Virus record (IMG/VR): IMGVR_UViG_3300047564_002353
Location: 38,000-101,999 of that record
Length of the DNA stretch: 64,000 bases
Reading direction: 5' to 3' (one strand)
Source: a virus
Below are positions 15,116 to 50,071 of this stretch, in pieces (positions within the stretch are counted from its first letter, which is position 1; each line of letters opens with the position of its first letter). The notes under the pieces were generated by a model. The model ran no database searches. It had not been told where the DNA came from and saw only the letters and a program-made list of their open reading frames with translations. A program made the translations under genes and the position numbers.

Positions 15116-15333
15116 GCTAACCCATAGATAGCATATACTAACATGGTTTTAGTATGCATATCATCTGCTTCGCTATCTAAAACATCAGTTCGAACTAAAT
15201 CTTCTAATAGTTCTTTATATTCATCAGTAGACATATTACCTTGTGCATATTGTTCTTGTAACTGAAGAGCCATTTGCGCTCTTTGTGCTACCCAAGGCTT
15301 ATCACTTTGTGCTAATTGATATAAATCGCTCAC
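15103..15333 (-). CDS. Hypothetical protein
   Basis: 76 aa helical ORF coupled to the lipoprotein gene. Confidence 0.6.
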   Translation of the reverse strand: MSDLYQLAQSDKPWVAQRAQMALQLQEQYAQGNMSTDEYKELLEDLVRTDVLDSEADDMHTKTMLVYAIYGLAQVV

Positions 15334-32060: not shown

Positions 32061-32136
32061 GCACTGATAGCTCAATGGTTAGAGCTAGAGTCTCTAAAGC
32101 TTTAGGTTATGGGTTCGAGTCCCATTCAGTGCACCA
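32061..32136 (+). tRNA. tRNA with CUA anticodon (amber suppressor)
   Basis: Acceptor GCACTGA/TCAGTGC + A-CCA; D-arm GCTC/GAGC; anticodon stem AGAGT/GCTTT with loop CTCTAAA; T-arm ATGGG-TTCGAGT-CCCAT; TTGACA promoter at 32023. Confidence 0.85.
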
Positions 32137-37238: not shown

Positions 37239-37358
37239 AGATCTAGCAGAGAACCCATAGATTGGCTAGCACGAGATGCGTGGGAATTCTATGCGTTATG
37301 CGTGTTTATGGTAACTTGGATTGTGTACTGGTATGGCAGTCATAGAGGCTTGTGGTGA
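37053..37358 (+). CDS. Hypothetical protein with C-terminal TM
   Basis: 101 aa ORF. Confidence 0.45.
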   Translation: MIFPELPKRFNQQLIIAQTPPQLNTVEDTGNIQEDKAPLRGITVEEWWQQHGLATDTLGPAARSSREPIDWLARDAWEFYALCVFMVTWIVYWYGSHRGLW

Positions 37359-37545
37359 AAACTATTATAGCTTGGATCACTATTGCAGCACAGACTATCG
37401 TGCAAGTATTGGCGGCTATTGGTTCTGCACATATTTGGTAGAAAGTATTTTAGCATAGCCTCTCGTGACCCCGACCATAGAAATTCTTCCTAACCATTCC
37501 TCACCATAGGGGCCTCTAGTCCGAACCATTCGGCCAAGGTCCGTC

Positions 37546-37602
37546 ACACAATTCAACACTTTTCTACACAATGTCACACAATTCTGACACAATTAGACAC
37601 TT
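37546..37602. repeat. Helically phased ACAC(AAT) repeats
   Basis: ACAC at 37546, 37556, 37566, 37576, 37587, 37597. Confidence 0.75.
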
Positions 37603-37712
37603 AGATGTCAATTTTCCCTGACAATCCGTATCTAGAATAGAGAATTTTAGCAAAATCGTACTAAAAAAGACACTGTGTTGCTCTTTTATTAAACTAGATT
37701 ATTAATATACTA

Positions 37713-37837
37713 AGTTAGTGTTCACTAACTGTTAACCAAACCAAAAGATTGCTGGTTGTACAATTTCTAGGTTAGTAAGCGCTTACTGATACAGTTGCTA
37801 TAGTATTAACACAGATATATGTTAGTAAGTACTTACT
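37713..37837. promoter_or_regulatory. Palindromic sites AGTAAGYRCTTACT (three copies; fourth at 44087)
   Basis: AGTAAGCGCTTACT 37774, AGTAAGTACTTACT 37824, degenerate copy 37713. Confidence 0.6.
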
Positions 37838-37939
37838 GTATCTAGAAACGGCAGGCACCCTCCACGTCCATCCCCAGACACGCTGTTCGAACCGTTGGAC
37901 CTAGGAGTTGTTGTTTTTGTTCGCTCTCTTAGTGTGTAT

Positions 37940-38040
37940 ATTATAGCATCACTGCTCAAAAAGTCAACCAAAATATCCCTGATTCGCAAAAATACAACAC
38001 TATCTTTTTTGGTTGACAATTACTCTAGTTCGTGTATAAT
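37940..38040. promoter_or_regulatory. Divergent early promoters
   Basis: Minus TTGACT-16-TATAAT with TG extension (37967-37940); plus TTGACA-16-TATAAT with TG extension (from 38013). Confidence 0.8.
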
Positions 38041-38071
38041 CATGACTTAGTTAGACAATTAAGGAGCTGAT

Positions 38072-38230
38072 ATGTATTCACTAGCATTCAATGAACTACG
38101 TGTAAAGCGTCTGTTTCGTTTTAACGGCAATGACTATATTAAAAACAGTTCGCGCACGGCACGTATGCTATCTAATGGGCGTATCTTTTACATTGGGCAA
38201 GCGGACATTGTACACCCTATTGCCTGGTAA
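38072..38230 (+). CDS. Small early protein
   Basis: MYSLAFNELRVKRLFRFNGNDYIKNSSRTAR...; promoter and AAGGAG RBS. Confidence 0.7.
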   Translation: MYSLAFNELRVKRLFRFNGNDYIKNSSRTARMLSNGRIFYIGQADIVHPIAW

Positions 38231-38296
38231 TTAGTGGTTGACATTTTGGAACTTTGGCTGTATACTACACGGACACTAACAAATTAGGAGCTGAAC

Positions 38297-38653
38297 ATGG
38301 AACTTACTCAATCGTTGGTCAATCACATGGTACTTGAAGCTAAAGAGGCTGCATACGAGGCAGCTGACAATTACTTTAGACAGCGTCTGAATGGTGTGGA
38401 TCAGTATGCCTGTGGCTTTGCTTGGGTTAACCTTTGGGAACACAATGGCGTCAAGCTCAAGGGTAACACTAAACTGGGCAAGATGCTTAAGGCAGCTGGT
38501 GTGCGTCAGGACTATACTAAGGCCTTTCAGATCTGGAATCCAAGTGGTTTGAGTGTACAGAACGTGGACTGTAAAGAAGTAGGTGCACAGGCTGCGGCTG
38601 ACGTGTTCAAGAAGTATGGATTCACTGCCTACGCTGGTTCACGTTTGGATTGA
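38297..38653 (+). CDS. Early phage protein (ACGFAWV motif)
   Basis: Own promoter and RBS. Confidence 0.75.
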   Translation: MELTQSLVNHMVLEAKEAAYEAADNYFRQRLNGVDQYACGFAWVNLWEHNGVKLKGNTKLGKMLKAAGVRQDYTKAFQIWNPSGLSVQNVDCKEVGAQAAADVFKKYGFTAYAGSRLD

Positions 38654-38744
38654 TGTTGTAAGAATACAACGGTAGGATTTTGGTTGACAAAGCCTACCGT
38701 TGGTGCTATACTGTTGAAACTGTGTAAATGATAAGGAGCTGACA

Positions 38745-39005
38745 ATGCGTGAAGCAACCAATCGTATTTTGGAGCTGGTCGAAGAGGGCTTGCTGGACCG
38801 TGATACTGTGATCATGGCCTGCTTGAAGTATATGAGCGAGGACGATGTAGCCGATATGGCTCACGCCAACGAGTTCTTCCTGGACGAAGATGAAGACGAA
38901 GAAGACGAGGAGTGGGACTGCGATGACAGCGATGATGGTTATGCGCTGGCCTCAGCGGGTTTTGGCACTGACGAAGACTACGGTTACGCAGGAGACGAAT
39001 ACTAA
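38745..39005 (+). CDS. Acidic early protein
   Basis: Very acidic C-terminus; ALASAGFGTDEDYG. Confidence 0.75.
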   Translation: MREATNRILELVEEGLLDRDTVIMACLKYMSEDDVADMAHANEFFLDEDEDEEDEEWDCDDSDDGYALASAGFGTDEDYGYAGDEY

Positions 39006-39376
39006 TGCGACACTATACTGAGTTGGCTCGTTACGAGCGTGAGGGTTTTGACATCATTGTGGACAAGACCTGGGAAGATATCTACGTAGGCGATTGCTTT
39101 GACGATACTTGCTGGGACATCAAGGACATCTGTAACAAGATTGACTCTGGTTGCTTGGATTGGTTTATGCTTCGTGTACGTGTACTGGTAGACGGCTTGG
39201 AGCTGGGTTCGTCTTACTTGGGTGGTATGCTCTACGAAGATGCCAGTGAGTGCTTGATGGATGGTACTGCCGAGGATCAAATCTACTTGGCCATACAAGA
39301 AGCCAAAGCCCAGGTATGGCCCTTGATGCGTCGTTTACAAAGTATTAACGCTGATATGGAGGCCGCCTGTGGATAA
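39005..39376 (+). CDS. Early hypothetical protein
   Basis: Coupled ORF; ELGSSYLGG. Confidence 0.7.
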   Translation: MRHYTELARYEREGFDIIVDKTWEDIYVGDCFDDTCWDIKDICNKIDSGCLDWFMLRVRVLVDGLELGSSYLGGMLYEDASECLMDGTAEDQIYLAIQEAKAQVWPLMRRLQSINADMEAACG

Positions 39377-39527
39377 CTTTTTGGTTGACATTGAGTACGA
39401 TCCAGTATATAATAGTTTCATGGCTTGCTACTCCAATGGCGTAGTGATCCAGCTAGGAGCCACTAACTATCACGATGCGGTGTTAGAGGCAGATGGTATC
39501 GAACCTTATGAATACGAAGGAGCCTAA
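39369..39527 (+). CDS. Small early protein containing an embedded promoter
   Basis: GGAGG RBS, GTG start: MDNFLVDIEYDPVYNSFMACYSNGVVIQLGATNYHDAVLEAD... Confidence 0.55.
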   Translation: MDNFLVDIEYDPVYNSFMACYSNGVVIQLGATNYHDAVLEADGIEPYEYEGA

Positions 39528-39812
39528 ATGAACATTCAGACTATTAATACTGCCATCATCAACGGCACTTGGGCTAACGAGGATTTGATGAGCATGATGG
39601 ATGCTATCAAGTTCAAACGTAAATTGCTCACTGAGCGTACTAAGGCTCAGTTGCGTGTAGGTGACAATGTGAACTTCACTAGTACTAGGACAGGACAGAA
39701 TGTCACTGGTGTAGTCATCAAGATTGCTATCAAATATGTCACTGTGCGTACTGTACAGGGCCTGTGGAAGGTGCCTGCTAACATGTTAAACAAGGTAGAA
39801 GATTTTGCTTAA
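39528..39812 (+). CDS. Early protein with SH3/KOW-like C-terminus
   Basis: LRVGDNVNF...GVVIKI..KYVTV...WKVPANML. Confidence 0.7.
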   Translation: MNIQTINTAIINGTWANEDLMSMMDAIKFKRKLLTERTKAQLRVGDNVNFTSTRTGQNVTGVVIKIAIKYVTVRTVQGLWKVPANMLNKVEDFA

Positions 39813-40023
39813 TCGAATATTAGAATGGGTGGCCTGTGGGGTCACCCTAGTTGGAGCTGCACTAACAGCTCAAAATATCTATCCTTTGAACACTTTGTTC
39901 TTAGAGTTAGGTGCATTGATCTATATCATCTGGTGTATACGTATTCGTAGAATCAGTTTAATTCTGGTCAATGTGACTTTGTTTTTAATTTATTTGCCAC
40001 CCTTAATAAGGAACTTTACATAA
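39805..40023 (+). CDS. Small membrane protein
   Basis: Three hydrophobic segments, NIYPLN. Confidence 0.6.
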   Translation: MLNRILEWVACGVTLVGAALTAQNIYPLNTLFLELGALIYIIWCIRIRRISLILVNVTLFLIYLPPLIRNFT

Positions 40024-40214
40024 TGGAACGCCATCGATTTAATGTTTGTATTGAACGCCGTGATGCTAATGGTATGTGGAGCATCAACAGCAATGATAAC
40101 TTTGATACTATTGTAGAAGCTCGTACTGTTAACGACGCTGAACGTATGCTGATGTCGCAGTATGGACATGGTGGAAACACTGTGGTCCGTGCTAACTATC
40201 GCGGACAGGCCTAA
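40023..40214 (+). CDS. Early hypothetical protein
   Basis: VEA....DAERML.SQYG. Confidence 0.65.
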   Translation: MERHRFNVCIERRDANGMWSINSNDNFDTIVEARTVNDAERMLMSQYGHGGNTVVRANYRGQA

Positions 40215-40291
40215 TGACGCCTAATGTACCTAGGTGGCCCGAAGATCCCATGGACTACGAGCTGCCTCCACATACTGATTAGCAAGTTTGC

Positions 40292-40325
40292 AACGGTGTT
40301 GTTTTTATGCAACACCGTTTTTTTT
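40292..40325 (+). terminator. Intrinsic terminator overlapping a TGTTG-N8-CAACA site
   Basis: aacggtgttg/caacaccgtt stem followed by a T-run. Confidence 0.7.
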
Positions 40326-40389
40326 GGTTGACTTTTCGAGTTCGTGGTGCTATACTATTGAAACTGTGTAAAACAACAAGGAGAGCGAG

Positions 40390-40635
40390 ATGTCAAACTA
40401 TCCAAATATGTCGTACTGTATGTTCGAAAACACTCAACTGGCCATGGATCAGCTGGCTACCTTTCTGCAAGAAGCAGATCAGGATGACATGCTGGACATG
40501 AGTAAGAGCGAGCTTCGTGCAATGCGTGAGCTGGTGGGCTACTGCGAACAGTACCTGCGCTTGGTTGAGGACTTTGACGACCAGCGTCAGCAGATCCTGG
40601 ATGCTTGTGAAGATGACGAAATGGAGGAGTTCTAA
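40390..40635 (+). CDS. Early hypothetical protein
   Basis: NMSYCMFENT motif; own promoter. Confidence 0.75.
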   Translation: MSNYPNMSYCMFENTQLAMDQLATFLQEADQDDMLDMSKSELRAMRELVGYCEQYLRLVEDFDDQRQQILDACEDDEMEEF

Positions 40636-40892
40636 TGTATACCGTTGAAGTTTACAAACAGGATCGCCGTACCAAGTCGGGTGAGCGGCTGGTACACAAA
40701 GCAGACTATGACACTGACAACATCAGTCAGCTGGAGCATAGTGTAAAGCATACGTGGCGCAAGGGCTATCGTTATGAGATTCACCAAACCTATGTGACCC
40801 GCAAGAACATGATGAATGGGCAGGAGTTCCAAGAGCGTTATGATACGCCCTACTACTGCTCGCCTAGATCTGAAACTTATTGGAGTTCATAA
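40635..40892 (+). CDS. Early hypothetical protein
   Basis: KQDRRTKSGER; TPYYCSPRSETYWS. Confidence 0.75.
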   Translation: MYTVEVYKQDRRTKSGERLVHKADYDTDNISQLEHSVKHTWRKGYRYEIHQTYVTRKNMMNGQEFQERYDTPYYCSPRSETYWSS

Positions 40893-41092
40893 TGTTAACA
40901 CCTAAACAACTATGGTTATTCAATCAGCTGGGCGAGGACCCTGCACAAGAGAAAGATGTACGCCTAAATCATCGTTTGTGTGTAGAGCAGTTTGGAGCTG
41001 TTAAGAATTTTACAACATGGCTGACCAAGCGTCTGTACCGCAAGTGGGAGTCGGATCGTCGCAGAAATACAACACCTTATCTAGGAGACTAG
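40892..41092 (+). CDS. Early hypothetical protein
   Basis: GGAG RBS, MLTPKQL start, ends in TAG. Confidence 0.6.
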   Translation: MLTPKQLWLFNQLGEDPAQEKDVRLNHRLCVEQFGAVKNFTTWLTKRLYRKWESDRRRNTTPYLGD

Positions 41093-41273
41093 TATGTTAA
41101 AAATAGCAATAGGTATGGGCAGCATTGTTATGATGATTGCAACACTGATTACTGCTTTAGTAATAACTAGAATGTGTCTCAGTGCTGCACATCATTTTCT
41201 GCTGAAATAGGTTGACATTTGGGCACAGAGGTGCTATTATATACACACTTAGACAACAACGAAGGAGAGCGAA

Positions 41274-41702
41274 ATGGGTACAAGAGCATTGACGTTTGTT
41301 TATGATGGCGACAAGCCAATCCTCAATCTTTACCGCCAGTATGATGGCTACCCAACTGGGCACGGTGCTGAACTAGCACAATTCCTAGAGGGCTTTACCA
41401 TTGTCAACGGTATTGGTCGCGAGACTACCCGTGTGGCTAATGGCATGGGCTGCTTGGCTGCACAGGTTGTAGCACACTTCAAAGACAGCGTGGGCGGATT
41501 TTATATCCACAGCGTTGACAGTAAGGAGTGCGGTCAGGACTACGAGTACCATGTGTACCAAAAGGACAAGGAGCTGCGTGTTCGCATTACGGATCGTGGC
41601 TGCAATATGTTTGGGCTTACAATCAGTGACACTAACGCCAGCATCTTTGACGGCTCTGTTGCAGAGTTTGTAATGTTCTGCTCTGAGCCACAAGCGGCAT
41701 AA
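41274..41702 (+). CDS. Early hypothetical protein (MGTR...Y..YDGYP type)
   Basis: Own promoter, GAGAGCGAA RBS. Confidence 0.75.
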   Translation: MGTRALTFVYDGDKPILNLYRQYDGYPTGHGAELAQFLEGFTIVNGIGRETTRVANGMGCLAAQVVAHFKDSVGGFYIHSVDSKECGQDYEYHVYQKDKELRVRITDRGCNMFGLTISDTNASIFDGSVAEFVMFCSEPQAA

Positions 41703-41766
41703 ATTGGTTGACAAAGTGTAGGGCTGGTGTTATACTAGCTCTACACTAACAAAACAGGAGCACAAA

Positions 41767-42027
41767 ATGGCTAGATTTGCAATTGAGCAGTATGTGGATC
41801 AAAAGAATCAGTGGGCAGGCTTGTTTGGTGGTCGGAAGCTGAGCTTGCTGAACAAGGCGGACAGGCAGCGGATTGCTGACAGTTTGGATGCAGACCTCAG
41901 CCCAGAGAATTTGAGCTGTGATGGCGAACTGCCTCGTGCGGAGGTGCAGAAGCGTTATAACTTCCTCACCCGTGCTGCCAAAGAGTTGAAGAGCATTGAC
42001 CCTGCTGTTGAAATGTACGGATTCTAA
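41767..42027 (+). CDS. Early hypothetical protein
   Basis: LSPENLSCDGEL motif; own promoter. Confidence 0.75.
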   Translation: MARFAIEQYVDQKNQWAGLFGGRKLSLLNKADRQRIADSLDADLSPENLSCDGELPRAEVQKRYNFLTRAAKELKSIDPAVEMYGF

Positions 42028-42196
42028 GGAGCTAGAATGAACAGAGAAGGATTGAACAGAATCGATCTTACTATTAGTATTTGGGTCGATACGGATGAGT
42101 ATCAAGACATAATTGAAAACTTGGATTACGATATCCAGCATCCTGCGGTCAAGGATATGGAACTCGTTGACGTAAACTACGAATAAGGAGACTGAT

Positions 42197-42763
42197 ATGC
42201 CTAACTGGTGCGAAAACAGTGTTGTACTCAAGCACGAAGACCCTACATTCGTTGCTCGTGCTCGTGAATCATTTAATCGCGGCGAGCTGTTGAATGAATT
42301 CGTTCCTGTACCTAAGGACTTGCTTGAGGCTATGGCAGGCAGTTTTGGTGATGCGGATAAGCAGAAGGACTTGGAGATTCAAACTGCATACAATATCAAG
42401 AACTATGGTTACAGCAACTGGTATGACTTCTGTATTGCAGAGTGGGGGACCAAGTGGGATATAGGTGCTAATGGTCAGCCTGCACAGGATATCGAAGGTG
42501 GGCTGATGTTAAACTTTGAATCAGCATGGGCTCCTCCGATTGAAGCATATAGCAAGCTGAAGAGTATGGGTTTCTATATTGAGGCTTTTTACTATGAAGG
42601 TGGCATGGGATTCTGCGGTGCTTGGATGGATGGTGAGGATGAATACTATCAGATCGAAGGCAACAGCGAATGGGTAGAAGCCAACATACCCGAGTATATC
42701 GACGAGGCGTTTGGTATCTCTCAAAATATGGCAGAATGGGAAGAAGAAAATGCAGAAGAATAA
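42197..42763 (+). CDS. DUF1281/YubB ferredoxin-like protein
   Basis: MPNWCEN, NWYDFC..EWGTKWD, FESAWAPP, YYEGG..FCG. Confidence 0.75.
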   Translation: MPNWCENSVVLKHEDPTFVARARESFNRGELLNEFVPVPKDLLEAMAGSFGDADKQKDLEIQTAYNIKNYGYSNWYDFCIAEWGTKWDIGANGQPAQDIEGGLMLNFESAWAPPIEAYSKLKSMGFYIEAFYYEGGMGFCGAWMDGEDEYYQIEGNSEWVEANIPEYIDEAFGISQNMAEWEEENAEE

Positions 42764-42850
42764 ACCTGAGCAACAACGAGTACGTCCCAAGGAACCCAAT
42801 TGGGACTTCTCTGGGCTGGAAGCAGTAATTAGACTGTGGGCTAAATCAAA

Positions 42851-43084
42851 ATGAGTAAACTACAACTACTTCACCGTCCATGGGTAGTATTTGATCCTCA
42901 TAATACTAACCATAGAAAGTATTACTCGGACTTTACCAAATATTCAACGTGGGGTCGTTGCCCTGTTAGGTTCATTATGGATGACGACAGTAACGATTTA
43001 GTAACAATGATTCAGCGTAAATTGGTAGAGTATTATGTAGTCAAAGAGTTTAATTTGGACGAATATAATGCAAAAAAGGCTTGA
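42851..43084 (+). CDS. Hypothetical protein
   Basis: RPWVVFDP....HR....TWGRCPVRF. Confidence 0.65.
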   Translation: MSKLQLLHRPWVVFDPHNTNHRKYYSDFTKYSTWGRCPVRFIMDDDSNDLVTMIQRKLVEYYVVKEFNLDEYNAKKA

Positions 43085-43168
43085 CACCAAACCAAAAGCA
43101 TAGTATAATTTGAACTGTAGTAGCAATATTACTTGTTTTTCTTTTAACACACACATGGAGATGTAACA

Positions 43169-43522
43169 ATGGCAACTGATAAAACTTATACCGTAGCTGG
43201 TACTTCTAAACACAATGGTGGCTTCAAAGTTCGTTTCGCTAACGATTTGATGCGTACCAAGAACCTGACCAAGTCTGGTCACACTGATATTGTTTTGGTT
43301 GAGCTGCCCAAGGCCATGCTCAAGATTGATGCTGTGAACTATATTGCAACTCTTGATGAGTTCAGCAATGTTGGTTCTAAGTCAGCTATCATGGACTATC
43401 TGGATCGCAATGATGCAGAGCCTAAAGCTAAGGCAGGCCCCGCTGCTAAGGCCCCTACTAAGGCCAAGGCACCAGCTAAGGCCAAGGCTGCTGAGACTGT
43501 AGACGAAGACGCACCCTTTTAA
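43169..43522 (+). CDS. Small protein with Lys/Ala-rich tail, putative DNA-binding
   Basis: KVRFAND..R.K.L.K.GH.DI.L.ELP; AKAPAKAK tail. Confidence 0.7.
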   Translation: MATDKTYTVAGTSKHNGGFKVRFANDLMRTKNLTKSGHTDIVLVELPKAMLKIDAVNYIATLDEFSNVGSKSAIMDYLDRNDAEPKAKAGPAAKAPTKAKAPAKAKAAETVDEDAPF

Positions 43523-43535
43523 TCGCGTGTGAGGC

Positions 43536-43582
43536 CTCCGTATCGTATAAATAATTTCACTATGCGATACGGAGTTTCTTTT
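43536..43582 (+). promoter_or_regulatory. Hairpin containing the late promoter TATAAATA and sequestering ATG 43562
   Basis: ctccgtatcgtata/tatgcgatacggag 14-bp stem (one G-U pair), followed by tttcttttt. Confidence 0.7.
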
Positions 43583-43735
43583 TCAAACGATTATTTTGAA
43601 GGTGTGGTAGTAATACGTGACTTTCAAAGCGAACCCAAAGGCCGTGTATTGGCCATAATACCTAGAGAATCAAGACACGAGGCAGAACAGGAAGCACAAC
43701 GAATCTGCGACTTATTAAATAAATCCTTGCAATGA
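43562..43735 (+). CDS. Small late hypothetical protein
   Basis: ATG 8 nt after TATAAATA. Confidence 0.6.
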   Translation: MRYGVSFSNDYFEGVVVIRDFQSEPKGRVLAIIPRESRHEAEQEAQRICDLLNKSLQ

Positions 43736-43905
43736 AATTTGAATTATACGAAGTTTGGAGTGAGGACTCTGACTTAGTAGATACTACAAGCAGTCTAGTC
43801 GAAGCTAGAATACTTGCTCAACAAGCACTTGACGAAGGTGCAGAGTTTGTTGTAATATATAGAGAAACAGACGAAGGCGATCTTGAAGTAGTTGAAGAAA
43901 TGTAA
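43732..43905 (+). CDS. Small acidic protein
   Basis: MKFELYEVWSEDSDLVDTTSSLVEAR...; coupled to the upstream gene. Confidence 0.6.
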   Translation: MKFELYEVWSEDSDLVDTTSSLVEARILAQQALDEGAEFVVIYRETDEGDLEVVEEM

Positions 43906-43906
43906 T

Positions 43907-43993
43907 GCCCGGGTGGTGAAATAGGTAGACACAAGAGACTTAAAATCTCTCGCTCGAAAGGGCGTGCCGGTTCGATTCCGGCCTCGGGCACCA
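43907..43993 (+). tRNA. tRNA-Leu(UAA)
   Basis: GCCCGGG acceptor, AGAGA-CTTAAAA-TCTCT anticodon arm, long variable arm, GGTTCGATTCC, CCA. Confidence 0.95.
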
Positions 43994-44000
43994 CTAACAT

Positions 44001-44075
44001 CTGGCCGTAGGTAAATGGATATACCAGTAGCCTTCTAAGCTTCTATTCCAGGTTCGATTCCTGGCGGCCGGACCA
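44001..44075 (+). tRNA. tRNA-Arg(UCU)
   Basis: CTGGCCG/CGGCCGG acceptor, loop CTTCTAA, A20 in the D-loop, CCAGG-TTCGATT-CCTGG, CCA. Confidence 0.9.
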
Positions 44076-44201
44076 CTCCCTAGGTTAGTAAGCACTAACT
44101 TACAAATCCCTCCAAAACAGTTAACTATTAAAATTTTTGGTTGACTTTTTTACGCAAAGCTGTATAATACAAACACTTAAACAAAACAGCAGGAGCGTAA
44201 A

Positions 44202-44495
44202 ATGCGTGTAAAAAAAGCAACTAAAGCAGACGTAGCAACTATTGTAGCAATTATGCAAGCTGACTTAGCACGTTATGTGCAACTAACAAAAACAGTAGAC
44301 GCTGACGCAGACGACATTTACATAACAGAATTGCACTACGACGACATTGTGTACAATTACAATGCACTGTTGCAGTTTACGCAAGACAAAGACACAGTAA
44401 AATTGTGCGACGCACTAATTAAACAAGACACAATTGTGCGCGAGTTTTTTTATAAAACTGTACACTACGCAACAGACAATTATTTGTACTATTAA
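44202..44495 (+). CDS. Early protein lacking Gly, Pro, Ser and Trp
   Basis: Promoter and AGGAGCG RBS; gene has no TC, CC or GG dinucleotide. Confidence 0.75.
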   Translation: MRVKKATKADVATIVAIMQADLARYVQLTKTVDADADDIYITELHYDDIVYNYNALLQFTQDKDTVKLCDALIKQDTIVREFFYKTVHYATDNYLYY

Positions 44496-44565
44496 TTTTG
44501 GTTGACAAAGTGTGTATAGTGTGCTACTATACACACACTTAAACAAAACACATAGGAGCGAAACT

Positions 44566-44745
44566 ATGCAAACAACTAAACAACAACTATTTGCTAAATT
44601 AGCAGAAGTGCAAGACCTGCTACATAACAGCACTTGCGACAGCGAAACTTTTGCACAAAGCTTGCAAGCTGACATAGGCTGGGCTGCGGAGCTGGACATT
44701 GCACTGCGTACACTTACAGACAATATAGATTATTACGTGGACTAA
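44566..44745 (+). CDS. Small early protein
   Basis: Promoter 44502, AGGAGCGAAACTATG. Confidence 0.75.
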   Translation: MQTTKQQLFAKLAEVQDLLHNSTCDSETFAQSLQADIGWAAELDIALRTLTDNIDYYVD

Positions 44746-44807
44746 AAACGGTTGACAAAGTGTGTGTACTGTGCTATTATACACACACTAACACATAGGA
44801 GCGAGAA

Positions 44808-44972
44808 ATGGACGAAGCTAAAATTGAGCGGCTGGAACGTACACTGTGGGAGCTAGAGCAGCTGGCTAGTGAGCTGTTTGACATGGGCTACATTACACAG
44901 GGCAACATGATTTATGATGCTGTAGAAGCAATGGACATGGAATTGCAAGACGTAGTAGAGGGGAGAGCATAA
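44808..44972 (+). CDS. Small early protein
   Basis: Promoter 44752, AGGAGCGAGAAATG; MDEAKIERLERTLWELEQL. Confidence 0.7.
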   Translation: MDEAKIERLERTLWELEQLASELFDMGYITQGNMIYDAVEAMDMELQDVVEGRA

Positions 44973-45205
44973 TGTTGCTTAAATACCAAATTGAAGAACT
45001 GCTGGCCCTGGATGCTGACGGCCTTGCTAGAATTGCAAGAGCCAGTGGTTACAAAGATGCTAAGTTCACTGACTGCGAGTTTGTGGGCATTACTAACGGC
45101 GGCGAGTTTGCATATAAAGCAACATATTTTGAGGACGGTGCGTACGACTTTACAAAATTGTATGTTCGCCGTGACCCTGCTGGGAACTATGTAGCAGACT
45201 ACTAA
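44972..45205 (+). CDS. Small early protein
   Basis: FVGITNGGEFAY motif. Confidence 0.7.
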   Translation: MLLKYQIEELLALDADGLARIARASGYKDAKFTDCEFVGITNGGEFAYKATYFEDGAYDFTKLYVRRDPAGNYVADY

Positions 45206-45275
45206 CACAAAAAACGGTTGACATTTTGGACAGTTAGTGTATAATAGCTGCATACGTTAACAAAAAGGAGCCAAA

Positions 45276-45518
45276 ATGTTTGCTACTGCTAAAAACAACA
45301 CTGCTTACGCTAAACTGTCCTTTTGCAAAAAACTGCAATTGTTTAAAATGATCGTTGCTTTTAATGTAACGCAGCGTAATGCTAAGGGCAAACTGTTGTT
45401 TCCTGTGCAACAAAAGTGCAACTATGTTAGTGGTCACTTTGCGCTAGAGGACCTTGCTAAACAGTTAACTGTTGCGGAGCAGCATCTGCGTACAAATAAA
45501 ATACAAATTGTAGAATAA
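45276..45518 (+). CDS. Small early protein
   Basis: Promoter 45218 and AGGAG RBS. Confidence 0.7.
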   Translation: MFATAKNNTAYAKLSFCKKLQLFKMIVAFNVTQRNAKGKLLFPVQQKCNYVSGHFALEDLAKQLTVAEQHLRTNKIQIVE

Positions 45519-45731
45519 TTTTGGTTGACAGTATAGCACCTTTGTGCTATACTGTGTTTTTAGTTAGGAGCGTTTATGTACACATTATATTTTTATAACA
45601 GTGGCGGGGAACGTGAGACGCATGGCTCGCACCCTACACTGGAAGCAGCTCAAGCAGTTCAAGCTCAAATGCAGGAAGAATTTGGCGACGATGATTCGCG
45701 TTTTGAGATTGTAGTTACCTAGGAGCGTCTA

Positions 45732-45947
45732 ATGACAGAACTAAAAGATATGCAGGGCCGTGTAATCTCAGTAGGTGATCAGGTGGCCTTTGTGGGCTAT
45801 CACAATTCCAACACATTGACAATTGGTGTTGTAAAAAAGCTACATCGCGTTCGTGCAGAAGTAGAGTACAAGAGTTTGTGGTCAAATAAGTCTAAAGAGA
45901 TCCTTAACACACGGGGATTGGTCAAGATTGAAAAGGAGTTTGCATAA
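45732..45947 (+). CDS. Small SH3-like early protein
   Basis: KDMQGRVISVGDQVAF. Confidence 0.7.
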   Translation: MTELKDMQGRVISVGDQVAFVGYHNSNTLTIGVVKKLHRVRAEVEYKSLWSNKSKEILNTRGLVKIEKEFA

Positions 45948-46153
45948 TGAATATTCTAGAACAGTTTGAAGAGTTGGGCAACAGAGCCAGCTTCCACTTT
46001 GCAGATGACAGTGGTAGAGAGTTTGACTCAGGTTTTGCTCGCCAGCGTGAAGCAGAAGCCTTGTTCGTTCAGCATCCCGAGCTGCGTGAGGAAATGACAG
46101 CAATCTCTAAGAGATTTTTGTGGACATTAAAGATTGACAAATTGGTTAGTTGA
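45947..46153 (+). CDS. Small early protein
   Basis: FADDSGRE motif. Confidence 0.65.
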   Translation: MNILEQFEELGNRASFHFADDSGREFDSGFARQREAEALFVQHPELREEMTAISKRFLWTLKIDKLVS

Positions 46154-46194
46154 CTGTATAATATACACATACACTAACAAAACAGGAGCGAACT

Positions 46195-46446
46195 ATGTTT
46201 AAATTAGATGAGCCGCGTGAAGTACATTTCCAAGGCAAAACGTACACTACATGGCACGGTAGCCCATTTGACCGTGGCAGTGCAGACAGCTGGTACAGCC
46301 GCAGTGCTAAACCACACTGGTACCCCGAAGGCACTGGGCGTGGTGAGATTGTAACAGAAGAGCGCATGAGCTTGGCGGAAATTGAAGCATACTTCGCTGG
46401 CTATGACCACAATGAGCGGTTTGGTGGTAAGAAGAGCTGGGACTGA
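46195..46446 (+). CDS. Early protein (HG.PFDRG.AD.WY type)
   Basis: Promoter 46134, AGGAGCGAACTATG. Confidence 0.75.
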   Translation: MFKLDEPREVHFQGKTYTTWHGSPFDRGSADSWYSRSAKPHWYPEGTGRGEIVTEERMSLAEIEAYFAGYDHNERFGGKKSWD

Positions 46447-46449
46447 ATT

Positions 46450-46640
46450 CCGGTTAGCACTTTCCTGAAAGTGCCGGGTGGGACACGTTAGTTATCCCGG
46501 TTGGCTAGGCTACCGTTAGCGCAATGCAGAGCAGAGCACCTAGATATCCGGACACAACCGGTAGCACGATACGCTGAAACAAATGTGGACAGGGAAACAA
46601 CTCCAGCATAGGGGCGATGATTGGAACCACGTGGCCTAAG
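46450..46640 (+). ncRNA. Candidate structured RNA
   Basis: About 200 nt GC-richer intergenic gap with several complementary stems. Confidence 0.4.
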
Positions 46641-46663
46641 CAACTAACATTAAGGAGCTAATT

Positions 46664-47053
46664 ATGCCTAAAGCACAACCAGTAGAAGTTATTGACCTGC
46701 CCGAACTACGTAGCCTGGATATCAACGAAATGTTTGATGCTATGGACGAACTTGATTGCCCTATTGATATGATTAACGAGCGATTGATCCTAGACGGTGC
46801 ATATGGCTATCAATCAGCCACAGAAGGCATCCTCAATCACGAGAAATTCTACGACATCACCGACGACGAATACCAAGCCTGTGATGCGGGTATTCAGGCT
46901 GCAATGAAAGCCGTGAATGCTACACTGCGTCGCATGAATGTAGACTACGAGATTGTAGAAGTAGATCTCGCAGAAAGTATGGGCTTCATGTTGGTTGCTA
47001 AAGATGCAACAGCCAAGCAGGTTGCTAAAAATATAAAGAAAGGTCGGATCTAA
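46664..47053 (+). CDS. Early hypothetical protein
   Basis: AAGGAG RBS. Confidence 0.7.
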   Translation: MPKAQPVEVIDLPELRSLDINEMFDAMDELDCPIDMINERLILDGAYGYQSATEGILNHEKFYDITDDEYQACDAGIQAAMKAVNATLRRMNVDYEIVEVDLAESMGFMLVAKDATAKQVAKNIKKGRI

Positions 47054-47117
47054 ATCGGTTGACAACCCAGCACCTTGATGCTATAATTACTACATACTGA
47101 AACAACAGGAGCAGACG

Positions 47118-47312
47118 ATGGGCTACAAGGTACTGGGCAACTACGAAGACGTCATGCAAGGATATGGTCCCCGCAAAGGACTGGAAGGCCCAATGAACTT
47201 TAACGGTCGTGTGGTCTACTACGATGTCCGAGAAGGCAAATACTGGGACCCACGCACCGACTTCTATCTCAGCCACTCAGAAGCATTGGAGATGTATGAA
47301 CTACGCACCTAA
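47118..47312 (+). CDS. Early protein (GLEGP...YYD..EG.YWDP.TD type)
   Basis: Promoter 47059 and RBS. Confidence 0.75.
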   Translation: MGYKVLGNYEDVMQGYGPRKGLEGPMNFNGRVVYYDVREGKYWDPRTDFYLSHSEALEMYELRT

Positions 47313-47775
47313 ACCCTACTATCGTGTATCAATGAACCGCAAACGTCAGATCATTGATGCCACCCTAGACGAGTTGCATACCTTGCAACTGGATATGATT
47401 GACCAAGCAGTAGAGTATTCTGATCTACAAGAAGCCAAGGAATTGATCGACTGGATCCGTAAGCTATGACAGTATCAACAGTTGACTGTGTTGCTATTAT
47501 TGCAATACTGCTGGTTCTGGCAGTGGGCTTGATCCTTGCTGGTTACGAATTAGCACATCTACTCATAGGCTGATATGTGGCTGCTTCTAACTATAGTATT
47601 AATCAATGGCGTACCAGACTTCATGGTCCTTGCAAAAACTACAACAATGACTGAATGCTTGAACTTGCTGAAAAAACAACCCAAGGATCCTAGTATGCAT
47701 TGTATCTACGCGAATTCGGTTGACAAATAGCCCTAGTTTTGCTATACTGTTGAAACTGTAAACAAGGAGCGAACT

Positions 47776-48114
47776 ATGTTGCTAGTCATTCAAACCCAAA
47801 ACCAAGAAAACTACGGCGCACACGACTGGGACGGCCGTGGCGAGTGCCCACAGTACTGGAAGTTCAAGGGCGGTAACGAAATCAAGGTCCAGGGCGTAGA
47901 AGTGGGCATGGACTACCAGCAGATCGTAGAAAGCCTGCGTGGCCAAATCGAAGAAAACACCAACTTCTACCGCGTGTCAATCATAGGCTACAGTGTAGAA
48001 GCTGACAGCTACCTCAGCTGGTTCGAGCAGAGCCAACTGGACTACGATGGCGAGATTCTGTTCAAAGAACCTGTGATTGAATATCAAAAAACGGTTGACA
48101 AACTGGCTGTTTGA
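47776..48114 (+). CDS. Early protein (ENYGAHDWDG...YWKFKGG type)
   Basis: Promoter 47720, AGGAGCGAACTATG. Confidence 0.75.
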   Translation: MLLVIQTQNQENYGAHDWDGRGECPQYWKFKGGNEIKVQGVEVGMDYQQIVESLRGQIEENTNFYRVSIIGYSVEADSYLSWFEQSQLDYDGEILFKEPVIEYQKTVDKLAV

Positions 48115-48152
48115 TAGTATTATATAAACACTGTAAACAAGGAGCAAATGAA

Positions 48153-48344
48153 ATGAACGATACTGCAATTTTCCGTGTAATGGGCGTACTGCAACTGCTA
48201 ATCGCCTTTATTAACTTCTACGTGGCCAATCAGGCACTGGCAGCCGGCACAGATGCCCTGAACATTGCTGTGGCTGCTGCACTGACTATGACCGGCGTGT
48301 TCTGCACTGTGGTTGGTGCTAAAATGTTTGGATGGTTGAACTAA
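48153..48344 (+). CDS. Small membrane protein
   Basis: Two TM segments; promoter 48095. Confidence 0.6.
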   Translation: MNDTAIFRVMGVLQLLIAFINFYVANQALAAGTDALNIAVAAALTMTGVFCTVVGAKMFGWLN

Positions 48345-48662
48345 TGGGCAAGTTCTTCTTAGGCGTACTGGTCACCCTGGCTATTATGTATCCTGTGGCC
48401 ACTAAGCATTACTTTGGTACAGCAGTGGATACAACCAACGCCGTTGTAAAACATACACTGGAAAAACCCATTGACAAATAAACAAAAAGACTGTATTATA
48501 CACACACTAACTGAACGGAGCGAACTATGTATTCTAAATTTATTATCCGACTGCTGGACGCGATCCCAACGCCTACTCCAGAGCAGGGCGACCGTGCAGT
48601 AAACTTGACCCTGGCTTTTGTAGCAGGATTTATTGTGGCAATGTTGGCTTTTGGAGGTTAAT

Positions 48663-48881
48663 ATGATGACTTACGAACAAGCAATTCAAACTGTGGCACA
48701 GGCACGTGAAGACTTTATGAATCGCCGCCCTACACTGGCCTACGTTCCAGAAACTAGCATCGCACTGTTCTACGGTAAGGACGTTGAACTGGTGCAGCTG
48801 GACTTGCTCATGGCACAACGAGCAATTGAAGCAGCAGAAAGCGTACCCAATTTCCTGCGTAAGGACTTGACAGCAGCATAA
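48663..48881 (+). CDS. Small early protein
   Basis: GGAGG RBS. Confidence 0.6.
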   Translation: MMTYEQAIQTVAQAREDFMNRRPTLAYVPETSIALFYGKDVELVQLDLLMAQRAIEAAESVPNFLRKDLTAA

Positions 48882-48960
48882 ACATCAGTTATAATATCGA
48901 CTACACACTAGCAATAGTGTGTAGCAATATTCTAACTAACACAGAGCGAAAGAGCGAACT

Positions 48961-49782
48961 ATGATGAATTTGGAAATCCCCAAGCTGGGCAAAAAGGCAG
49001 CAGAAACTAACGAACAGATCAAACAGCGTCTGCGTGATCGTTTTGAAATACTTAACGATATGACTCGTGCTGTTAAGAAGGGCGATGTACGTGCTATGAT
49101 CGTCACAGGCCCACCAGGCGTAGGCAAAAGCTTTGGCATTGAAGAAGTCTTGGGCAAGCACGACTTGATGGCGAACATTGCTAACAACACCAAGCTCAAG
49201 AAGTACGAAGTGGTCAAAGGTGCTATGAGTGCGTTGGGCTTGTATGCTAAACTCTACGAGTACAAAGACCCTAAGTCAATCCTAGTGTTCGACGACTGTG
49301 ATAGTGTACTGCAAGACGAACTGAGTCTTAACATTCTCAAGGCAGCACTGGATACATCAAAGAAGCGTATGATCCATTGGAACACAGACAGCCGTCTACT
49401 GCGTGATCAGGGCGCACCAAATAGCTTTGAGTTCAAGGGCGGTGCTATCTTTATCACTAACATTAAGTTTGAGAATGTACGTAGCAAGAAGCTGCGTGAT
49501 CACTTGGAAGCCTTGGAGTCACGCTGCCACTACTTGGATCTTACTATTGATACAGAGCGTGAGAAGATGCTGCGTATCGAACAGATCGTAGAAGATGGTA
49601 TGCTCACAGAGTATGAGTTTAGCACAGAAGAGCAAGCAGAGTTGATTCACTTTATTGACTCTAATAAGAAGAACCTACGCGAACTGTCACTGCGTACAGT
49701 ACTAAAGATAGCGGACTTGCGTCGTAGCTTTCCGCATAAGTGGCAGAGCGTAGCAGAGGTTACCTGTATGCGCCGCGGTTGA
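48961..49782 (+). CDS. AAA+ ATPase
   Basis: Walker A GPPGVGKS, Walker B LVFDDCD, sensor IFITN, Arg finger ALESR. Confidence 0.9.
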   Translation: MMNLEIPKLGKKAAETNEQIKQRLRDRFEILNDMTRAVKKGDVRAMIVTGPPGVGKSFGIEEVLGKHDLMANIANNTKLKKYEVVKGAMSALGLYAKLYEYKDPKSILVFDDCDSVLQDELSLNILKAALDTSKKRMIHWNTDSRLLRDQGAPNSFEFKGGAIFITNIKFENVRSKKLRDHLEALESRCHYLDLTIDTEREKMLRIEQIVEDGMLTEYEFSTEEQAELIHFIDSNKKNLRELSLRTVLKIADLRRSFPHKWQSVAEVTCMRRG

Positions 49783-49872
49783 TTCGCTCCCAACCAGCAT
49801 ACTGAGTAAGGGCCATCGTGGCCCACTTGATCCCCAGATGTCCGATTCGCTCCCGGCTCTGGGGATTTTTTT
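49777..49872 (+). ncRNA. Three-hairpin 3' RNA/terminator with two ATTCGCTCC loops
   Basis: GGTTG-attcgctcc-CAACC; GGGCCA-tcg-TGGCCC; ATCCCCAGA..CCG-attcgctcc-CGG..TCTGGGGAT followed by a T-run. Confidence 0.65.
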
Positions 49873-50071
49873 CCTCTCGAGGTTGAGAAAATATTTTCGA
49901 AATGGTAGGGGGCCCGGGGCTTTATATTTTCTTTTTAGTTGCAATTTTTATAAACTGGTATAGGTGCAAAATCACCACCCCGAAAGGAAATAGTAGCTAT
50001 TTTAAAATTTTCGCGCGGAATTTTTTTAAACCCTGCAGGACCAATTCGGGTAAATTTCACTAAGTATTGTT

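Follow-up and report, generated by a model that had tools for sequence, protein, structure and literature searches.

A candidate immediate-early small-RNA gene with a conserved core in the early region of a jumbo-phage contig

The early gene module of the phage DNA analysed here (the window, a continuous stretch of 64,000 nucleotides) contains a promoter that faces away from the genes of the module and is followed by no open reading frame of its own, which raises the question of what an RNA read from this promoter might do. An earlier reading of the locus, hereafter the original prediction, held that the RNA is a decoy or antagonist which pairs with a second RNA encoded near 49.8 kb and so delays the shut-off of the early genes. 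The locus was therefore compared with its relatives and the proposed pairing was evaluated together with other explanations.

The window was taken from an IMG/VR virus contig of 102 kb, which is estimated to be 29% complete. Tail-fibre, baseplate and helicase proteins are encoded in it, and its nrdC.10-like protein is 50% identical to the counterpart from a PA5oct-type jumbo phage. When cultured phages were searched with the region by nucleotide BLAST, neither the near nor the distant mode returned a match. The close relative IMGVR_UViG_3300042350_002797 (G001; 364.5 kb, 100% complete) preserves the gene order around the small-RNA locus and around the hairpin site at 49.8 kb. The G+C content of the early module (38000-50000) was 0.41-0.47, compared with 0.30-0.42 in the rest of the window. 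The window also encodes a tRNA with the anticodon CUA (32061-32136, plus strand), identified as tRNA-Pyl by ARAGORN and matched by the Rfam tRNA model with 70 bits, which is a candidate amber suppressor of the phage.

Promoter, leader and downstream region

The promoter is of the sigma70 type and is located on the minus strand at 37967-37940, with the -35 element TTGACT (37967-37962), a spacer of 16 nt and the extended -10 element TGcTATAAT (37948-37940). It scores 11/12 with the extended -10. Within the interval 30-50 kb, which contains approximately 20 consensus promoters on the plus strand, the minus strand has no other match of at least 11/12. The lone minus-strand early promoter described in the original prediction is thus present and is the sole one of its strength on that strand of the interval. 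The -35 and -10 elements are unchanged in G001. A plus-strand promoter at 38013-38040 diverges from the minus-strand promoter, and the two have in common the upstream block TTTTGGTTGAC, inverted over 11 nt (inverted repeat I12). A further inverted repeat of 17 nt (37660-37676 / 37997-38013), 82% complementary and with its arms 320 nt apart, brackets the promoter and the RNA unit.

Transcription is predicted to start near 37933. The putative 5' leader (37933-37901, minus strand) carries the early-leader-like ACACUAA and the RBS-like GAGAGCGAAC at 37928-37919 and is without a start codon; ATG, GTG and TTG are all absent within the range of a ribosome-binding site, in agreement with the description of this segment as a pseudo-RBS. 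The leader resembles those of other early genes, and ACACACTAA recurs in two plus-strand early leaders (44783 and 48502); the 11-mer ATACACACTAA in its exact form occurs at this locus only. The heptamer GAGCGAA is part of the ribosome-binding site GGAGCGAA, which is found 0-3 nt before the ATG of 7 plus-strand early genes. There are nine occurrences of GGAGCGAA in the window against 0.68 expected, a 13-fold enrichment, and most serve as ribosome-binding sites. Elsewhere in the window GTTCGAAC occurs at 15188 and 25138, within coding sequence and not at ribosome-binding sites. A 65-aa frame that overlaps the RNA locus begins upstream of the promoter and has no match in PHROG.

From 37933 to 37300 the minus strand showed no terminator-like site consisting of a GC-rich hairpin with a U-run. 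It does have two palindromic hairpins of 14 nt, both near-perfect and without a U-run, at 37837-37824 and 37787-37774. The region that they delimit (37837-37774) is likely the 3' end or a processing region, which would give an RNA of approximately 100-160 nt. In related members a hairpin ending in ACUAAC lies 15-25 nt past the conserved core described below, and in the window a hairpin of the GGTTAGTAAGCACTAACT type directly following tRNA-Arg (44079-44100, plus strand) resembles the palindromes at 37774-37837. Such hairpins may mark the 3' ends of stable RNAs or may constitute a protein site.

After the RNA, no minus-strand gene is found in the window for approximately 15 kb. A subclade of the related loci shares a non-coding region downstream of the small RNA, located in the window at 37540-37610 and 37440-37470 in minus-strand reading and present also in L087 (8340-8640), L103, L105, L107, L148 and L149. 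The region comprises four or five AAGTGT/ATTGTGTGA repeats in 10-bp phase, a conserved promoter-like block of the GGCTATGCTAAAAT type and then CAGCGGGGCC repeats. In L087 it leads into a co-oriented gene with the GGAGCGAA ribosome-binding site.

A conserved core with a covarying stem

The conserved core extends over 37900-37851 on the minus strand and comprises stem S1 (37895-37893 / 37882-37880), the loop GUUCGAACAG (37892-37883) and the tail CUGGGGAUGGAC (37877-37866), which is followed by GUGGAGGGUG. The segment UCUGGGGAU (37878-37870), on which the proposed pairing with the terminator depends, falls inside this core. Covariance model R1 matched the core of the window with 66 bits (E=6e-17). 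Comparison of the window with G001 revealed a change at only one of the 77 transcribed positions between 37933 and 37857. The flanks of this interval are 32-70% identical in the same comparison (46% in the adjoining small-ORF region and 32% in the downstream DNA), and the 101-aa protein encoded on the other side of the RNA locus is 53% identical. Past 37857 the divergence between the window and G001 abolishes any common peptide and, therefore, selection acts on the nucleotides. The near identity of promoter and core in this diverged relative, and the occurrence of the core behind promoters in dozens of contigs, are in accord with the original view of an ORF-less RNA behind a divergent early promoter.

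The first distant family member was a weak BLAST match in a more distant contig. Three degenerate pattern scans then identified approximately 36 distinct copies of the core on approximately 40 IMG/VR contigs of about 4 to 364 kb, mostly from large or jumbo phages and including six essentially complete genomes of 222-364 kb. The covariance model found one copy each in the window contig and G001, two in G007 and two to three in G012, and copies in the same genome are separated by kilobases. Among 185,579 species genomes (GTDB) the sole matches were phage-like MAG contigs; a Brevibacillus match in the genome scan looks like a chance match in coding sequence and was discarded. Two further copies with promoters reside on short MAG contigs (L187, CAINIH010000104.1; L188, CALKUR010000019.1) from MAGs assigned to Methylophilaceae and Dechloromonas, which hints, if weakly, at Betaproteobacteria of freshwater or wastewater as the hosts of these phages. 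Contig L187 is rich in short repeats of the CTCTGAGGTA type.

A sigma70-like promoter is located within 55 nt upstream of the core in 31 of the 36 copies. Two classes can be distinguished by the distance from the end of the -10 element to the loop, which is 9-10 nt in 16 copies and 30-55 nt in 15. In the former class the hairpin would therefore begin at +1, and the purine at the first stem position, as well as the frequent AUG or GUG there, would be explained by its use as the initiating nucleotide. The leader block ACUAAGAGAGCGA is common to the window, G001, L102, L130 and L143, and in the other members it is absent or exchanged for another leader; G006 and G017 carry a different one (AUAAUAAGAAA...) that lacks GAGCGAA, and the short-form members are leaderless. 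No conserved downstream ORF was found, as most members have no ORF of at least 90 aa within 1.2 kb and the remainder share no family. The complete 322-kb genome G007 repeats the layout of the window, with a lone minus-strand motif promoter divergent from approximately 35 plus-strand sigma70 promoters. These near-consensus promoters (L178, G007:117500-136500) are spread over 19 kb, where 40 were found against 10 expected, and the second copy of the motif in G007 is located within the plus-strand promoter array.

Across the family the core consists of 3-4 variable nucleotides, the invariant loop GUUCGAACAG, the complementary variable nucleotides, 1-2 further nucleotides, CUGGGGRUGGAC and GNSGAGRGYG, with GGGGGU instead of GGGGAU in about 40% of members. 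The members were gathered by sequence patterns and the invariance at pattern positions is consequently imposed in part; the columns of S1 lay outside the search patterns. Compensatory changes were found at all three pairs of S1, with the central pair occurring as GC, CG, AU, UA and UG. The covariation amounted to 24 double-change cells, a value reached by none of 500 shuffles, and slid controls were far lower. When all column pairs were scanned, S1 alone covaried. The whole RNA folded no better than shuffled sequences (z = -0.2 to -1.8). The loop GUUCGAACAG includes the putatively T-loop-like UUCGA.

Other pairings within the core were also considered. RNAalifold proposed GUUCG/UGGAC together with CAG/CUG for 33 members; all of these pairs are invariant and lend support neither way, and the proposal was set aside. 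Members L109 and L139 disrupt the GUUCG/UGGAC helix without compensation. The GUCCA/UGGAC stem-loop in which the original prediction placed UCUGGGGAU is present as a local pairing in the window, but the family at large does not preserve this stem.

Searches of other collections were negative. Rfam 15 matched only three tRNAs in the window, with nothing relevant at E<=10 in 37300-38100, and gave no match at E<=1 for ten member loci. BLAST of the core against 50,697 records of cultured phages and against PLSDB plasmids returned chance matches only. A multi-copy host RNA able to pair with the tail was not apparent in five bacterial genomes, where the counts equalled those of the controls.

Candidate functions of the RNA

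The explanation favoured here, at a probability of roughly 0.55, is that the locus at 37933 is a stand-alone immediate-early gene for a non-coding small RNA, the core of which belongs to an uncatalogued jumbo-phage family and functions in binding, or as a decoy, through its invariant unpaired bases. The RNA would be read leftward from the strong host-type promoter that diverges from the early gene module. Its core of approximately 45-50 nt would fold into a short hairpin with the covarying 3-bp stem and the invariant 10-nt loop GUUCGAACAG, directly followed by the invariant G-rich tail CUGGGGRUGGAC, predicted to be single-stranded, and then GNSGAG. Since the invariant bases are the unpaired ones, the RNA most likely offers them to a conserved partner and would thereby act in trans. 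A host or phage protein would be a likelier partner than an RNA, and with a protein partner the molecule would act by binding, or as a decoy, while the phage takes over the host. Several results weigh against the small-RNA explanation: no canonical terminator was found, the whole RNA folded no better than shuffled sequences, the backing from covariation is limited to a 3-bp stem, and in the subclade the core is physically linked to the conserved non-coding region with 10-bp-phased repeats, an arrangement that fits a role in cis too.

That the core is a cis element of a larger control region is unlikely. As such it would belong either to a transcript that activates an origin or serves as a primer and leads into the phased array at 37546-37606, or to a nut/put-type modifier of RNA polymerase. 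The position of the element at the very start of the transcript is consistent with this proposal, as are the WWGTGTBA repeats found in 10-bp phase 300-700 nt downstream in ten members, which are followed by the promoter-like block and CAGCGGGGCC repeats, and the retention in L087 of a co-oriented gene with the GGAGCGAA ribosome-binding site after the non-coding region. However, the repeat array is missing in most members, and a second sigma70 promoter is usually located 55-160 nt downstream, with the result that later transcription would not require the first promoter. No downstream gene is conserved, and in the window no minus-strand gene follows for the approximately 15 kb noted above. The GC skew merely follows gene orientation and gives no sign of an origin at the small-RNA locus. 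Antitermination of the nut/put type and a riboswitch-like leader are not supported, no shared co-oriented gene having been found downstream. A role in cis is possible for the array-bearing subclade and leaves the family as a whole unexplained.

A somewhat more doubtful proposal sees in the core a degenerate CRISPR-repeat-like unit, solitary and in the style of type I-E, which would engage host Cas proteins as a Racr-like anti-CRISPR or as a crRNA-like decoy. The unit opens with GUUC and spans approximately 31 nt, and a start and length of this kind resemble those of I-E and I-F repeats. In the long-leader members the opening sequence, CUAAGAGA or AUAAGAAA, is similar to the 5' handle of I-F repeats. 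Thermus I-E repeats (PMC4599208 Table 6) contain the 11-nt TGGGGATGGAC of the core as their 3' stem arm and the beginning of their 5' handle, an identity with a shuffle P of about 0.0015 per repeat, and the resemblance was spotted post hoc among many repeat families. Solitary repeat units have been described (PMC10651486) with an arrangement like that of the core, which has no ORF and immediately follows a promoter in the early region of a phage; a sigma70-like promoter lies within 55 nt upstream in 31 of 36 copies, inside the 250 bp expected of such units, and the copies are dispersed at 1-3 per genome, not in a CRISPR array. Against this proposal, the canonical repeat hairpin is absent, the only possible pairing being CAG/CUG, which is excluded by the covarying S1, whereas Racr activity requires an intact Cas6-binding stem (PMC10651486). 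Arrays with an AUGGAC handle were sought in 401 genomes of the class to which the MAG matches point, and arrays of the motif itself in the 185,579 species genomes; neither search found any. The motif was not found in the text-form supplementary files of the Racr paper (PMC10651486), and about 40% of members have GGGGGU, not the GGGGAU of the resemblance. The resemblance to CRISPR repeats is kept as a lead only.

The RNA partner supposed by the original prediction lies outside the RNA gene, in three plus-strand hairpins (49777-49872) located after the stop of gene 48961-49782. Two of the hairpins have the identical loop AUUCGCUCC (49782-49790 and 49845-49853). In the stem of the terminator AUCCCCAGA (49830-49838) pairs with UCUGGGGAU (49858-49866), followed by a U-run. 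The element is conserved in G001, where the last base of the terminator arm is lost. One to three short-stem hairpins with the identical AUUCGCUCC loop were also found after the stop of the homologous gene in G006, G015, G016 and G017. The stems of these hairpins vary among relatives (CCG/CGG, CCUAGG/CCUAGG; loci L179, L180, L181 and L182), and the terminators after the loop clusters differ, those of G015, G016 and G017 having no complement to the core tail and that of G006 retaining 6-7 bp. Loop clusters were not detected in five essentially complete (93-100%) genomes that bear the motif, and a terminator-type variant, with CUGGGG after the loop, was found in none of five complete genomes. 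The conservation of this putative anti-RBS hairpin element in several lineages looks real, as judged from sequence comparison, and is a finding separate from the small RNA.

It is quite improbable that the small RNA is a sponge for this element, with GAGCGAA pairing to the loop and UCUGGGGAU to the 5' arm of the terminator to delay early shut-off, and equally so for a reduced version in which contact by the RBS mimic would be a lineage-specific add-on. The complementarity of the UCUGGGGAU segment at 37878-37870 to 49830-49838, and that of GAGCGAA to the loop at 49845, do occur and in antiparallel order, as the original prediction reported. The AUUCGCUCC loops are predicted to be accessible, with an unpaired probability of at least 0.83, and cofolding pairs the leader segment GAGAGCGAAC with the first loop at -10.6 kcal/mol (ddG -10.4 kcal/mol). 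In addition, the anti-RBS loops are conserved, GGAGCGAA is strongly enriched as a ribosome-binding site, and loop clusters were confirmed for the members with the ACUAAGAGAGCGA leader that were searched, namely the window and G001, G015 (L102) and G016 (L130); the remaining member with this leader, L143, is on a contig of 4.7 kb.

The comparison with relatives nevertheless speaks against the sponge. UCUGGGGAU is invariant family-wide, even in genomes that have no complementary terminator arm, among them G015, G016 and G017, with only 6-7 bp in G006 and a shortened arm in G001. The five motif-bearing genomes mentioned above have no loop clusters at all, and G006 and G017 possess the loops, yet the leaders of their small RNAs have no GAGCGAA. 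The core is found in more genomes than the hairpin element and is invariant while the terminators differ; therefore, it does not vary with the supposed partner. The sole copy of the 9-mer in G006, G009 and G010 is that in the core, and the remaining copies in the complete genome G007 are in coding-like sequence.

The predicted energies are no more favourable. The 5' arm of the terminator is locked in its stem (unpaired probability at most 0.04), and the 9-bp duplex of -17.5 kcal/mol would be offset by opening costs of approximately 10 + 4, for a net gain of about -3 kcal/mol. Since the 3' arm of the terminator has the same 9-mer as the small RNA, the intermolecular duplex cannot beat the intramolecular one. 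Cofolding left the terminator intact, with contact between the leader and the first loop only, and this decoy contact (-10.6 kcal/mol) is 3.3 kcal/mol weaker than that of a true ribosome-binding site (-13.9 kcal/mol). The caution expressed at the outset that the 9-nt match could be due to chance was well placed. When a 174-nt RNA was shuffled against the 106-nt target, a complement of at least 9 nt arose in 4% of shuffles and one of at least 8 nt in 15%, and approximately 20-25 other places in the window hold a 9-nt complement to the same target. A duplexfold of the two RNAs, in which 18% of shuffles were as good, gave unrealistic long duplexes and was discarded.

The sponge model thus rested on a match that fails comparison with relatives, and a decoy or antagonist RNA that delays shut-off is not supported. 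The complementarity of UCUGGGGAU to the terminator arm at 49.8 kb is incidental and appears to be a coincidence confined to one lineage. On the modelled energies the leader could make a weak contact of 7 nt with the anti-RBS loop. That in this lineage the family RNA gained a 5' tail copying an early leader and ribosome-binding site, and titrates the anti-RBS hairpin RNA from the far end of the early module through this 7-nt GAGCGAA-loop contact alone, is again a long shot; if true, such titration would constitute an RNA-against-RNA timer for early-gene shut-off.

Least probable is a leaderless micro-ORF, in which an AUG or GUG of the stem at the start of the transcript would begin an 11-100-aa peptide with G-D/G-G-R, for although ATG or GTG is found 19 nt before CUGGGG in 25 of 36 members, at the predicted +1 in the short forms, and one subgroup terminates in LVSAN-stop, no start is present in the window, G001 and nine others, an in-frame stop interrupts L148, the peptides vary from 11 to >100 aa with unrelated tails, the core has no synonymous-type third-position changes, a usable SD and a PHROG match are absent, and changes at the G of the supposed start codon are matched by its partner in the stem, which means that it is the structure that is maintained.

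Relation to known systems

As a stand-alone small-RNA gene, the locus would add a delimited, covarying RNA motif to the early 'host-takeover' modules of jumbo phages, the content of which is almost wholly unexplained. A specific macromolecular partner is suggested by the invariant unpaired bases of the motif, which would provide a handle for finding the first phage targets.

Bacterial and prophage sponge RNAs, such as AgvB, which acts against GcvB, copy a target site and thereby titrate a regulatory RNA, and known sponges have conserved, extended pairing with an accessible seed of the partner. In contrast, the site complementary to the window core lies hidden within a terminator stem and has not been conserved together with the partner, and the 7-nt site is absent in two lineages that bear the partner. 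The Racr solitary repeat units (PMC10651486) and Cracr (bioRxiv 10.1101/2024.10.29.618823) are similar to the locus in being short and ORF-less, with a strong promoter, a location in an early region and one to three copies, and the core has an 11-nt identity to part of a type I-E repeat, the GUUC start and a length of approximately 30 nt. The core differs from both in lacking the Cas6 hairpin and in having another covarying stem, of 3 bp, as well as conserved positions outside the repeat-like part, and no matching host array was found.

In T4-type phages, PeSL cassettes (promoter-early stem-loops) are found on either side of ORFs and have stem-loops that act as terminators (Arbiol et al. 2010, PMC2839356). 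These cassettes bring strong sigma70-like promoters and stem-loops into a region of small non-essential early genes, and the 38-50 kb module of the window, with which the unit shares its promoter class, looks like such a region; however, the RNA unit is ORF-less, its hairpins are not terminator-like, and its loop-and-tail sequence is conserved across distant genomes. The Pseudomonas jumbo phage PA5oct encodes ncRNA001 and ncRNA002, of 236 and 451 nt, in its terminal repeat; these RNAs account for 2.4% and 4.65% of phage reads early and are high in middle infection (Lood et al. 2020, PMC7318152). They have no detected sequence similarity to the core but are likewise ORF-less RNAs, encoded by a distantly related jumbo myovirus. 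The element would thus belong to the known class of phage-encoded early small RNAs, with a motif family that is itself uncatalogued in Rfam, and the PeSL cassettes and the PA5oct RNAs are its nearest published analogues.
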